Part shown: positions 49,001 through 55,000 of the stretch, one piece after another
Layout of the letters: every line of letters begins with the position of its first letter
Numbering within the stretch: position 1 is the first letter of the stretch
From: Escherichia coli
GTDB lineage: Bacteria > Pseudomonadota > Gammaproteobacteria > Enterobacterales > Enterobacteriaceae
Length of the DNA: 64,000 nucleotides
Reading direction: 5' to 3' (one strand)
NCBI RefSeq assembly: GCF_017348835.2
Contig: NZ_CP072312.1
Program-made: the position numbers

Positions 49001-52000
49001 ACGGTGCGCCATCAATGGCAAAAAGCTGCAGGCCGTGCCAGTCATCCTTCAGGTAACGTTCCGAGCCCCATGTCTGTGCGGTCTGGCGGAAGAGCCATTC
49101 CACCGGGGCGGCCCCCACGCGCTGACGCGCCTGGGTGACAGCGCTGCGGGCCAGCAGGTTCATCCCCGCTTCGCCATCCGCGCTCAGGTTCAGACGGCGA
49201 ACCACATCGGTAATTGGCTCATTGCGGAAAAAGGCCATGGCCACCACCATCCAGATAACCATGTCCCCCGGTAAACGACGGCGGCGAACGGTCGCATGCG
49301 CAGAAAGCGTCAGACAGTGCTGTATCCACTCGACGGGAAGGTGCTCTGCAAACAGTTGTGCAGAGGGCGGTGGCATAAGCGGATGGTCACTGAAATCGAG
49401 CAGATCATTGAGAAGTGGCATAAGAAAACGGCTCCCTGTTGTGGAAGCCGTTATAGTGCCGCAGTTTAAGGATCGGTCAACCGATCCTTAACTGATCGGC
49501 ATTGCGCGAAGCGGGAACCCATCTTATATATAACCGGTAACTGCGCAGCCTCCTGCCAGACCATTTTTCGCGGGCACAATATTTACAGACAACCGGAAAG
49601 CCAGTTGATGAAATTGAGGTATATCAGACGACACAGCGATGCCGAAGAATGATAATATAAGTAAAGCCCCGAAAATTTTTCGGGGCTTTACTTATATTAT
49701 CATGACTTCCACTTTCTGAACTGTTCGGCAATCACCCATAACGCCTTGTTGATTCTTATATCACCATCAATACCTGTAATGGCTCTTGTCCTGGTATTTT
49801 TCCCGGAGGCACTTCGCCCCGATAATCCACCTTTTATCATATTCTCCTGAGCCCGCTGCCAGGTTGTCCAGAGATCGTTCTGTTTATTCTCCCGACGACG
49901 GGGAGTAATTATCTGTTCAGGCGTCACTGGCGTTTTATTTTCATCTTCATACCTGACCATCAGTGCAGCTCTGCCAAATAAATGTTGCTCGTCACTGTTA
50001 AGATGAATTTCTTTCATCGCCTCCATATTATCAGTGACCTTATCAAAGACACCGAGTACTTCATACGCTCCCTCGATAACCTGCCCGACAATATCACCTT
50101 TATGTGGAACGCGGATTTCGCCAAAATTATTTCCGCACACCAGGCCATTTGTGCAGACAAAACGAAAAATTCCGGGGATCATCTGATAACTGGATGAACC
50201 ATCATGTGAATTAAGCAGGATAATTTCAGGAACTTCCTGCCCGTTAATATGCCCTTCCCTGCGAAGACGTAACATATGTTTACTGTATTCGCGACGTCCC
50301 AAATCACGAACCCGACTCTGACAGGCAAAGAATGGCTGGAAACCTTCATCACGTAACTTATTGATGATATTGTTGGAATATACGTATAACGTTCACTCCG
50401 GGACTCATGTTTATCACCGGAAAATACCGAAGGCACGAACTGCATTAATTCATCATCCGTTAAAGGACGTTCACGGCGGATGGAATTATACCGACCAAAA
50501 CGGGAAGCTAATCGCATAACAGCTACTCCTTTATGAAAGAATAAATTTAATAAAAAACTTTTCCGCTTAATATCATCCCTCCCGGTCACTATTAACAAGA
50601 TTGCAACAATCAGGAGAAATATTCATCACATCTGGTCAGCAGATCGCCCGGATATCGAGGCCGGCACGCTTAATCTGACGCAGGAACTGTTTGAAGTGAT
50701 CGGCTTCCGCAATGTTGATATGGCGGAACTGCGTATCCACACCCCGGCTGAGCGCGTAGCTATAGCTGAAGGCCATCTTTTCCGGGTGGCTTTTGCGATA
50801 TTTTTTCAGCTCAGTCAGGCTGCTGAATTCCAGGACGTCCCACTCTTCCCCGGTGTTTTTTTCTTCCCGGCAACAAGAAGCGTGTACGACGCGGTGTTAA
50901 CGTGGATATTTCGGGTACTCATCCTGCTTTCTCCTCTCTCTGGTTTTCAGCCCCCATCATCTTTTGAGTTTCGGGAGCCGCGGTTTTGACGTTTTGCGGG
51001 GATCTGCCTTTTGTTCCCTCCGGTATTCACCATCACCTTTTTGAGAACCTTCGCCGCAAGGGGCATCACTGCCACGGCCGGAAACGACTGTCCGGGGGCA
51101 GACCGCAAAAGTTTTTGCCTGCTTTTGGGCAAAAAGTTTTGCGGGATGTACATTTCACCCTGGACTGGCGGAGACGTCTTTGCCCCCGGCGACAGGGGCT
51201 TAAACAGGTGAATGGCACCGGACACAACAACGGGCAGGGACCCGCCGCAACGACGGAGAGCGCGTGCGCGAAACGGCGTTGCCCCTTACATCCCGGCGGC
51301 CTTTTGCCGGAATGCCAGGAGCGCAGGCCACGGCGCGACAGAGGCGGTGCGACCGGAACGGTCGCTGCAAGCCAGGGTTTCGCGTCAGGGATGGAAGCCC
51401 GCCAGGGCGGAGACAGCTTCGCTGGCTCCGTTCACGACAGCCCGCCCCGCCAGGGGGACGCCCGGAAAAGCCATAAACAGGAGAGGAACGGAAAGAAGAG
51501 GAAGAGGAAAAAGAAGAAGAACAATAACAAGCACGGTAACCATAGAAAAATAACATCAGAAAAAAACATTCCGGACACATCACAAACAGGAAGGGTAACG
51601 GGCGACGCGTCAGCATGGCCCGCTTCCCTTCCGGCAGGCGTCAGCCTGCCAGGGGTTTTCGCGCGGGCTGACAGGCGGCCTCCACCGCCTGCCCTGTATC
51701 ACCTGTTTCTGCTGCCCTGAAGGATATAGTGACCACCGAGGAAAACCGCCTGCTGATTCGCCACAAAATCGCAGATTTCATCAACAATCTGCGCGGTGGT
51801 GAGCGGTTTCTGCCCCATATCACGACGCCGCACATTAATCACGGCCCTGTAATTACGCAGAATTTCGCGGGTTTCCGTGTTGATATTCATGACATGTGCT
51901 CCCCGTCCAGCGCCTGTAACACAACGTCCATTGCTTCGCGTTCTTCCCTGACGAATGCGTCACCGTCGCCCCCGTTCTCACTCCCGACGGCATACAGGCG

Positions 52001-55000
52001 CTTCATTTCACTGCCTGCCAGCGCCATCACTTTTTCAAGCATCACTGCCGGGACTGTCACCTGACGGCTGGCACGCTTTTCTTCCATCAGTTCACGGACA
52101 ACGTCGTGAACAATGCTGACATCCGCACCATGCTCAAAAGCATCGTCCAGCCGTTGCATGACGGTTTCCAGCTCATCGTCTGTCAGACTCCAGTCCCGGG
52201 CTATGTGACGCACATCCCCACGGGTCAGCACCACGGCAAAAACGCATTCACTGTCCGGCACGTCTGTATCCAGCACTTCGCGGATAATTTCTTTAACAGT
52301 ACAGTACATGTTCTCGTCTCCTTTACAGGGGCGGCATTGCCGCCCCGTCCGTTAATCAGTCCAGTGCCGCGTAAATCGCGTTACATTCGGGATGAACTTC
52401 GATGTGGCTCCACGACTGCGCATCACGCATCCGGTACAGGTGTGTCAGTCCCGCATCACCGCTGTCGTGGTACAGCCACAACTGGCGGTTAATCACAAGG
52501 GAAGTCAGAATGATGCCTGCGGCATCGGCGCTGACCGTGCGGTCAAACCAGTTTGCACCGTTAACCAGATGAAAACGGTCACCGTCCGGCAGGCGGATGA
52601 AGTGCCAGAAGCCGCCTTCATATTCCGGCATCATTTGTTTCGCCAGCACGTACACAGACGCTTCGGCATACAGAAAACCCAGGCCAAACAGGTAAGGCAG
52701 AAAGGAGAGACGGTCGCACTCTTCAACATTCAGAGTGACAGGTTTCGCATATTGCATGATGTTTTCCTCCGTTGTTCACATATTCCGCGACACCGGGCGG
52801 TGCCGTGCCTCCATAAAAGCCGGGCGATAAGGCGGGGATGCAGGGGCGCAAGGGAAGCCGCAGCCTGACGCACACGGCTGGCGGGAGTTGGAGGGTGAGA
52901 CCGCGAAACCTGAGCGGGTGAACGACCGGAAAATCACGGCAGACGGGAAGGAGGGACCGGGTGACCGCAGCGGCGAAGCGTACCCTTGCATCCCCGCCAG
53001 CCCGGCTAAGATGGAGGCACGGCACAGCCCGCACACAACACGGCGGCCACATAACTGAAAACCCACAAGGCCATGCCCCGCATGGCCGGGTAAAGCGGAG
53101 CCGGTGGCGACTTCCTTTGAGCTCTGTCCGGGGACCGGCAGGAAAAAGGCGGGGATTTACCCCGCCAACGTCATCATTTCCGGATTTTTGCCAGGGCATC
53201 CGCCATGCTGCGGATTTCGGCCCGGGCTTCCCGGACAACTTCCCGCAGAACACCACGGTCAAACCACTGGCGGGGCGGTTCATCCGGTATACGCAGCACA
53301 TCGCAGGCCAGCCCACTGGACAGGATATGTTCAAGACAATCGCTGACCAGATACATTTCCACCGCCGAAAAACGTGCGCCCCGGTTCAGGATGGCATCGA
53401 GCACCACGGGCAGGTTTTCGTCGTCCTCATCGAGCCAGCAGGGGTGATCGCTTTCCTTCACGACTAGGCGAAAGCGGCGCGTCTGGCGGGTCAGTAACGT
53501 CTGACCGGTGGTGGTCAGCGCCGCCCGGATACGCAGCGTATCTTCTGCCACCCGGCAACTGACACTGCGTACAGCATCACGCACCGCCGCAAGTACAGCC
53601 CTGATTTCGTCTTCGGTCAGCCATTCACCGGCATACGGAAAAGACACCTGCGTTCCGTCTGCCGGAAGTACCGGCAGCGACTGCCACTGACTGCCGGACA
53701 GTACAAGTTCCGCCCCGGTTCCGGTCAGTTTGTGAATAGCGGAGGCCAGGAGCGGCGGCAGTACGCCGCCGTGACGGTTGATAAGTAACGTCGCCAGCCG
53801 GGGCGCATCCAGCAGAACATAAATGCTGATCCAGCCCGGATACTTCGGGTTCCGCTGGTCAACATCAGTCTCTTCCGGCCAGCCCTGCGCCAGCAGCAGG
53901 TCGCGGGCGTGACGACAAATCAGTGCATTCAGCGTTGTGTTTTCGTTCATGATTAATCGTTCTCCCTGTATCGCCGCCCGGAGGCGGCGATAACATCAGT
54001 CGTTTTCGTGCGTGTTGTTTTTCAGCAGGATGCGGGCCTGATTAACCACCGCCTGACGGCGGGTGACGAATTCCGGGACGGCGAGGCCGTTATCACGGGC
54101 GGCCCATTCACGCTTCCACAATGCCTGTTCAGCGGTCTGAATCAGGGACGCCAGCAGTTCAGCAGGGACGGTCACCTGGCGGTTTTCACTCACGTTGCTG
54201 ATAATCTCCATAGCCGCACCGGAAGAAATACCGGACTCAGTCCGCTGGTCTTCCGGGATGTCCTCCAGCCGCGCCAGGACGGTCCTGATTTCATGATCGG
54301 ACAGGGAAATATCCATTCCATCAGCGAGGACCTGAATCTCTTCCGGGGACCAGACAACCAGCATCAGCGGAGTGTCTCCCGGATACTGCGCTGCCAACTC
54401 CCGGCAGAGCGTTTCGCATGTTCCGTACATACTCTCTCCCCTCAATCTTTGAAGCAGGAATCCAGTTCCAGAATTTCGGTATATGCCTCCATCAAGAGGC
54501 GGTTTGCGCGAAACAGCGTCTGACGCACCAGACGTTCCGGCAGGGTGTCGGCATTAAAGCTGTACCGCTGCTCCATCTCATTCATGGTTGTACGCAGGTC
54601 GCACATGGCATTGGCCACCTCCGCCACTTCGGCGCGCAGTTTTTCGTGTCCGGCATAGTTCATTTACGCAGCCTCCGGTTCAAACCAGTTATCATTCGCG
54701 GCCCCCTGCTGCATGGCCCGTTGCACGGCGGCCAGTCGTTGCTGTCCGGCACGGTGATACTGTTCAAGCAGCTCGATACCGATATACCGGCGTCCGGACT
54801 GAAGGGCGGCCACGCAGGTTGAGCCGCTGCCTGCAAACGGGTCCAGCACAATTGCGTTCGGATGTGTGAAGCTCTCAATCAGTGGTTGCAGGCTGGTAAC
54901 GGGCTTTTCCGTCGGGTGATGGCGGTTGCCTGAATATTTCCAGCCCAGCACGTCGGGCAATGGCTTCTGAGGCAGCGCCGGACGCCCTTTTGCCAGGATG

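Follow-up and report, generated by a model that had tools for sequence, protein, structure and literature searches.

KlcA/ArdB blocks type I restriction in vivo, not in vitro, PsiB acts purely by binding host RecA, and Ocr is a phage protein (T7). Together with ArdA and ArdR, these are the described systems with which we compare here a pair of small acidic proteins of the DUF1380 family, encoded within a 64,000-nucleotide stretch of Escherichia coli plasmid DNA (contig NZ_CP072312.1; this whole stretch is referred to as the window). The two open reading frames (ORFs), ORF-A (DUF1380-A) and ORF-B (DUF1380-B), are each located promoter-distally in a different leading-region operon, behind a hairpin of the transferred strand.

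Class 2 (klcA/ardA) and class 3 (M.EcoGIX) single-stranded DNA (ssDNA) promoters have been defined, with transcription starts mapped in pESBL by 5' rapid amplification of cDNA ends (5' RACE). Both ardA and klcA are under class 2 promoters, F carries elements homologous to the ssDNA promoters of pESBL, the F methylase gene is termed an M.EcoGIX homologue, and induction in transconjugants was shown, for both pESBL and F, of the KlcA and M.EcoGIX operons (Wen et al., PMC12672017). In F, the ArdB homologue is driven by the ssp2 hairpin, which also stalls synthesis of the complementary strand, and transfer of F lacking ssp2 was 36-fold lower into EcoGIII recipients and 5-fold lower into EcoKI recipients (bioRxiv 10.64898/2026.01.09.698686, 2026 preprint). 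M.EcoGIX is a single-strand-specific N6-methyladenine (m6A) methylase that protects conjugal transfer (PMC7736820).

As judged from sequence, ORF-B is of the YubF / YcgB / YfcB type and ORF-A of the YubJ / YcjA / YcgC type, these names being UniProt-derived (Samuel et al. 2024, PMC11541004, supplementary file 3); the A type is labelled yubJ in the GenBank record LC744463. In the same survey, the B type forms leading-region family 7 (3957 members, median gene position 19 from the origin of transfer, oriT) and the A type family 14 (3145 members, position 15 from oriT). Both are among the 15 largest leading-region-enriched families, and both are tagged 'Uncharacterized', with essentially no anti-CRISPR or anti-restriction match in sequence or structure (PMC11541004). 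ORF-A and ORF-B are already catalogued, and the family is functionally uncharacterised.

Many E. coli IncF plasmids, among them the enterohaemolysin plasmid pF2_18C_FIB, match the DNA at 49500-58400 of the window at 100% identity. Identity to the copies of F is 96% for ORF-A (YubJ), 94% for ORF-B (YubF) and 99% for the methylase. Gene order and upstream hairpins are shared with F, whose hairpin region upstream of the methylase is 93.5% identical. YubF and YubJ of F and related IncF/IncI plasmids are the same proteins, with nothing materially different.

The DUF1380 pair

The region examined was the minus-strand gene string at 51.7-55.9 kb of the window. ORF-A (51887-52309, minus strand) is intact and codes for 140 amino acids (aa) with the N-terminus MYCTVKEII; its Shine-Dalgarno sequence is AAGGAG. 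ORF-B was listed by an earlier note on this DNA as 53996-54445 (minus strand), 149 aa from a TTG codon, and its reading frame is intact. Because the Shine-Dalgarno sequence GGGGAGAGAG precedes an ATG at 54430 and the family alignment agrees with it, the true start is almost certainly this ATG, giving 53996-54430 and a protein of 144 aa beginning MYGTCETL. This start position is common to 30/30 aligned sequences, including relatives at ~22-35% identity, and nearly all of the N-termini read MYGT or a near variant (MYCT, MFGT, MIGT). On the same two grounds, the TTG at 54445 and the long N-terminal extension of RefSeq were both rejected. Thus both ORFs of the earlier note are present, with the start of ORF-B moved to 54430 and with the minus strand, which it had left unstated, now assigned.

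In the record of an identical plasmid (NZ_CP043544.1, 75103-75589, corresponding to 53996-54482 of the window), RefSeq flags ORF-B as a 'frameshifted' DUF1380 pseudogene, and for the F copy of ORF-B the annotation gives 185 aa, the additional N-terminal part overlapping yubE. Since the intact 144-aa ORF covers the whole Pfam model, the pseudogene flag appears to be artefactual, caused by reference proteins that are over-extended.

The earlier note had described shared blocks in the two ORFs and taken them as paralogues, and both points are borne out. Of the motif pair SLTDDELETVMQRLDD / SLSDHEIRTVLARLED, one occurs in each ORF, and RQVTVPA was found in both. BLASTP gave 29% identity over 123 aa (E 2e-10), and hhalign of the A-subfamily against the B-subfamily alignment gave a probability of 98.2% and an E-value of 5.4e-14 over 131 columns, end to end. 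PHROG 9024 matches both proteins. The similarity is far above chance, and on these alignments ORF-A and ORF-B are full-length homologues.

ORF-B matches Pfam DUF1380 (PF07128) at 1.2e-52, over positions 1-137 of the 137 of the model. The match of ORF-A as a single sequence is weak (8.1e-4, 19.9 bits, residues 1-99). It was assigned to DUF1380 because of the hhalign result, PHROG 9024, the precomputed PF07128 matches of 144-aa variants 93-94% identical to it, and its RefSeq name, 'DUF1380 family protein' (WP_000271758.1), a product name given to ORF-B as well. No other Pfam domain was detected in either ORF, and NCBIfam has no family for either. The hallmarks of the family are all present in both: the MYGT-type N-terminal start, the hydrophobic LxLLVW(S/T), the (T/S)DxE...VL helix, the RxVTVPA linker and the C-terminal helical hairpin. 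The acidic composition pointed out in the earlier note is also a trait of the family. The isoelectric point (pI) is 4.47 for ORF-A (net charge -16) and 4.55 for ORF-B (net charge -11), and it stays below 5.2 in 21/22 divergent DUF1380 members.

The family is small: of 1.84 billion representative proteins searched with a profile, 281 matched at E <=0.001. Foldseek against AFDB50 matched DUF1380 proteins only, nearly all of them of Enterobacterales origin. The A type alone, at >=90% identity, is encoded in at least 5000 PLSDB records. DUF1380 is a small family confined to conjugative plasmids of Enterobacterales. A search of 50,697 phage records yielded no DUF1380, and therefore its role looks specific to conjugative entry.

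Operon positions and partner linkage

FinP and the 5' untranslated region of traJ are located at 46465-46575, and oriT between traM and the SLT gene. From these positions the plus strand was taken as the transferred strand, and the minus-strand genes to the right as the leading region. The two gene strings are separated by an intrinsic terminator at 53166-53140 (minus strand; GGCGGGGTAAATCCCCGCC, then TTTTT), and a long inverted repeat stands before each. The first string is preceded by a long hairpin at 55407-55631 (plus strand), the equivalent of the class 3 ssDNA promoter (ssp3, the M.EcoGIX promoter type). Its arms, 55407-55436 and 55602-55631, are 83% complementary, and the ssDNA fold of 55348-55830 has an energy of -122.3 kcal/mol (z -5.0 against shuffled controls). 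Behind it on the minus strand are an orphan N6-adenine DNA methyltransferase (YubD, M.EcoGIX-type; 54664-55347; NCBIfam NF010253 at 3.8e-150), YubE (73 aa; 54442-54663; PHROG 4830 at 6e-34, and PF27407 in orthologues), DUF1380-B with its Shine-Dalgarno sequence and ATG as the third gene, and a 258-aa protein of YubG / YchA type (53174-53950; PHROG 8919 at 1e-139) as the last gene before the terminator. The start of YubE abuts the methylase stop (TAAATG).

The hairpin of the second operon, at 52794-53031 (plus strand) upstream of klcA, is the equivalent of the class 2 ssDNA promoter (ssp2 of F). Its arms, 52794-52825 and 53000-53031, are 88% complementary, and the ssDNA fold of 52758-53180 has an energy of -110.8 kcal/mol (z -5.65 against shuffled controls). 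The first gene on the minus strand codes for a KlcA/ArdB-type antirestriction protein (YubI; 52356-52757), named 'antirestriction protein' by RefSeq and matching PHROG 10132 'anti-restriction protein' at 5.5e-14, with PF03230 assigned to orthologues. DUF1380-A is the second gene. After it comes a YubK-type basic protein of 63 aa and pI 9.8 (51699-51890), the start of which overlaps the DUF1380-A stop by 4 nt (ATGA); elsewhere YubK follows DUF1380-A or KlcA. Within the 5.2-kb region, no sigma-70-like promoter was found against 1.8 expected. The terminator, the hairpins, the lack of sigma-70-like sites and the agreement with published work all uphold the proposal of the earlier note that one copy lies in each hairpin-driven operon. 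Transcription in transconjugants was reported operon-wise for F and pESBL, and by analogy with these homologous operons it would apply to the present ones.

RefSeq places a 101-aa 'hypothetical protein' (WP_032163448.1) at 55424-55729 on the minus strand, an annotation that covers the greater part of the ssp3-like hairpin and probably does not represent a real gene. Two GC-rich stem-loops of 7 bp without a T tract were observed on the minus strand between cistrons, one in the klcA/DUF1380-A spacer (~52320-52345, GGGGCGG-caatg-CCGCCCC) and one in the DUF1380-B/yubG spacer (~53965-53990, CGCCGCC-tccg-GGCGGCG). These might be elements of mRNA stability or processing, or small ssDNA hairpins.

Co-occurrence, which the earlier note had suggested as a check, was analysed over 30 loci, comprising the contexts of divergent members and 20 loci from species-representative genomes, with all ORFs typed against the window proteins. 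Synteny was kept in every informative locus, down to 28-38% identity. The B type stands directly after methylase-YubE wherever upstream sequence is available, usually with YubG next, and every A type found comes immediately after KlcA. For seven loci (L020-L025 and L029, including a Yersinia pestis contig), neither KlcA nor an A type was detected between yubG and yubK. The only one of the seven inspected, L022, carries a 168-aa ArdA gene (6652-7158) at the klcA-DUF1380A position, which suggests a cassette swap at the class 2 promoter. The locus of Citrobacter werkmanii (L031) carries four DUF1380 genes, one tandem pair after YubE (4998-5880) and another after KlcA (7627-8506), indicating that the family expands locally. 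Leading regions carry between 1 and 4 DUF1380 copies, the A copy being optional. F-like leading-region contigs were also met in assemblies labelled Oscillibacter, Oscillospiraceae, Collinsella and Streptomyces morookaense (L013, L015, L017, L018, L021); these are almost certainly mis-binned or contaminating enterobacterial plasmid DNA.

The DUF1380 proteins diverge more than the products of the genes before them. At a methylase identity of 88-92% to the window copy, the identity of DUF1380-B is 56-59%; likewise, loci whose KlcA is 72-75% identical have a DUF1380-A at 46-47%. For the farthest loci the values are 72-84% for the methylase vs 28-34% for DUF1380-B. The pairwise ratio of non-synonymous to synonymous substitution rates (dN/dS) was 0.15-0.40 for B, 0.07-0.27 for A and 0.04-0.16 for the methylase. 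Judged by these rates, DUF1380-A and DUF1380-B are real genes under purifying selection, evolving faster than the methylase. The compared loci indicate that A and B separated long ago and that each lineage goes with an operon of its own.

What the pair might do

AlphaFold2, run with a 30-sequence alignment, gave confident all-helical models with a predicted local distance difference test (pLDDT) score of 87.1 for B and 81.4 for A. Both models begin with a helical domain of ~80 residues, continue through the extended RxVTVPA linker, which is invariant, and end in a long C-terminal helical hairpin. Searches of the PDB by sequence, single and profile, matched only de-novo-designed helical proteins, on account of composition, and Foldseek against the PDB gave a best E-value of 1.2 and no solved relative. 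No enzyme motif was found in DUF1380 proteins, and no remote homology of DUF1380 to its operon neighbours was detected. A 16-residue LTxxEIxAVL motif at residues 111-126 of YubG resembles the DUF1380 helix motif (S/T)LxDxEIxxVLxRL; the relatedness of the two proteins was rejected as not significant (hhalign E 0.039, probability 1.3%).

We favour the reading, at a probability of roughly 45%, that the DUF1380 proteins are transient, non-enzymatic, protein-binding accessories of establishment or anti-defence, expressed in the recipient from the single strand as it enters, with the copies subfunctionalised. Both operons would be switched on in the recipient right after DNA entry via the single-strand promoters, as reported for F and pESBL, and the DUF1380 proteins would be produced transiently in the new host. 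Judging from the models, the C-terminal helical hairpin may mediate dimerisation. The proteins would bind other proteins and help the incoming plasmid to establish, either by anti-defence or by neutralisation of a host factor. PsiB serves as the functional model for such a mechanism, being likewise small, expressed from an ssDNA promoter on entry and a binder of a host protein; it differs in having no homology to DUF1380, and the psiB module is absent from the window plasmid. KlcA/ArdB shares the operon and the early expression of ORF-A, and its mechanism is similarly obscure. Its sequence is however unrelated, with no Pfam match to PF03230 in ORF-A or ORF-B and an hhalign probability of 0.3%, and KlcA has phage relatives (PHROG 10132). 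The two DUF1380 copies would be subfunctionalised, each linked to the effector of its own operon, and would bring no extra dose. A role in dosage, which the earlier note had also considered, is unlikely because the copies are only ~28-29% identical.

Several observations count against this reading. The literature on DUF1380, yubF/yubJ, ycjA and yfgB/yfhA yields no functional study (the 'yfhA' of PMC10104558 is a different gene, ParB-like). No sequence or structure similarity to any known anti-defence protein was found, and the inter-domain geometry of the models is uncertain, with a predicted template-modelling score (pTM) of 0.56-0.57. KlcA occurs without an A type in five loci (L013, L019, L026, L028, L030). 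Gene-wide dN/dS stays far under 1 and so bears no signature of an arms race at this resolution. The phenotype of the ssp2 deletion could be due to KlcA/ArdB alone. Cloned KlcA/ArdB and cloned M.EcoGIX have each been reported to be active alone, and therefore DUF1380 is not essential for those effectors.

The main rival explanation is that each paralogue tunes the upstream effector of its own operon, neither of them attacking host defence itself. DUF1380-B would then act with the M.EcoGIX-type methylase and YubE, for example by limiting methylase toxicity or directing the enzyme to the entering strand or Pol I, and DUF1380-A would act with KlcA/ArdB. The strict linkage of B to methylase-YubE and of A to KlcA speaks for it, as do the absence of the A type where ardA replaces klcA and the divergent surfaces of paralogues that share the N-terminal MYGT and RxVTVPA core. 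A modulator would make sense, given the cost of M.EcoGIX to replicons and its association with Pol I (PMC7736820). However, the frequent presence of KlcA without an A type and the reported activity of both effectors when cloned alone tell against it, and the linkage may merely reflect the scarcity of ssDNA promoters to sit behind. Nor is there Rosetta-stone support, since the YubE-DUF1380, KlcA-DUF1380 and DUF1380-YubG fusions in the databases are nearly all singletons and seem to be artefacts of deletion, frameshift or chimerism. We consider this explanation somewhat unlikely.

A wider proposal, decidedly unlikely in our estimate, is that DUF1380 is a conjugation-specific adaptor family, in which a conserved core docks a common target and the diverged surfaces recruit or shield the two anti-restriction effectors. 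The core would be the MYGT N-terminus with RxVTVPA, and the target would be, for example, Pol I, SSB, the replisome or one class of host immunity. In one version, B would shield the heavily m6A-methylated incoming DNA from the type IV, Mrr-like restriction provoked by the methylase of its own operon, and A would extend the activity of KlcA beyond type I systems. Such an extension could explain why deleting ssp2 of F had an unexpected, 36-fold effect on transfer into EcoGIII (type II) recipients.

Feedback regulation of leading-region expression is improbable as the function of the pair. The analogy would be with ardR after ardB in IncN plasmids and with korC after klcA-klcB in RK2. In R46 (IncN; also pKM101), ardB is directly followed by ardR, coding for a 134-aa 'ArdAB regulator', and then by a short ORF, an order that mirrors KlcA - DUF1380-A - YubK. 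ArdR, annotated as a regulator, was nevertheless rejected as a DUF1380 homologue and taken as a positional analogue only: a hidden Markov model search of all R46 ORFs gave no match, and the hhalign probability was 0.3%. DUF1380 is strongly acidic, and no helix-turn-helix or other DNA-binding domain was found in ORF-A or ORF-B by Pfam, NCBIfam or fold searches; the basic YubK (pI 9.8) is the better candidate for a DNA binder. Moreover, ssDNA promoters are silenced by duplex conversion, with no repressor needed (PMC12672017).

DNA mimicry, in which the acidic proteins would imitate the charge of DNA and titrate DNA-binding defence enzymes like ArdA and Ocr do, is very improbable. The location in the leading region beside anti-restriction genes fits it, and ArdA is likewise small, acidic and leading-region encoded, even at the klcA-DUF1380A position in L022. 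As for the proteins themselves, all that favours mimicry is the bulk charge, that is, the net charges of -16 and -11 at a pI of ~4.5 and the conserved acidity. Neither sequence nor fold similarity to a known mimic was detected, and DUF1380 is less acidic than ArdA and Ocr, with a two-module helical architecture; Ocr is, in addition, a phage protein, whereas DUF1380 was not found in the phage records.

That the genes are hitch-hikers of little present function, kept only through useful operons, is scarcely credible: the A type is often lost and RefSeq flags ORF-B as 'frameshifted', but both frames are intact at 25-35% identity with start, length and motifs conserved, dN/dS is 0.07-0.40, the flag appears artefactual in view of the 144-aa ORF matching the Pfam model from 1 to 137, and the plasmid copies number in the thousands.

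Plasmid context and significance

In comparison with F, the window plasmid is without the ~4.85-kb ssb - yubL - ParB-like - psiB - psiA - hok/flm module. The sequence at 50943-51473 of the window (flanks 49505-51699) matches both of the F regions that border the ssb-psiB-psiA module, at ~58.1-58.6 kb and 63.5-64.0 kb of the F record. We infer that these two matches are the two copies of Frpo, the class 1 ssDNA promoter; on that ground, the module was probably lost by recombination between the Frpo repeats, with one hybrid copy remaining. An IS4-family transposase lies at 48084-49421, between the SLT gene (orf169) and a DUF932 (YubM-like) gene, and F sequence abuts the insertion on either side (F 65448 / 65455). 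The DUF932 frame is split in the window into ORFs 49700-50302 and 50179-50598. Two gene remnants (55821-57193) separate the methylase operon from the ParB/ParA partition genes, namely a 109-aa ORF of DUF1281 (55821-56150) and a frameshifted umuC/DinB-family polymerase gene with an internal stop (56073-57193).

The sequence of the window is itself not new. What is added here concerns the DUF1380 family: two old partner-linked lineages, variable copy number, evolution faster than that of the genes beside them, and absence from the phage records. DUF1380 is carried by thousands of F-like resistance and virulence plasmids, in two operons that are reportedly induced within minutes of entry, and the pair makes a well-defined experimental target. 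Once found, the targets of DUF1380 would fill a gap in the establishment of epidemic IncF/IncI plasmids in new hosts, and they might clarify the in vivo action of KlcA/ArdB and of the single-strand methylase.

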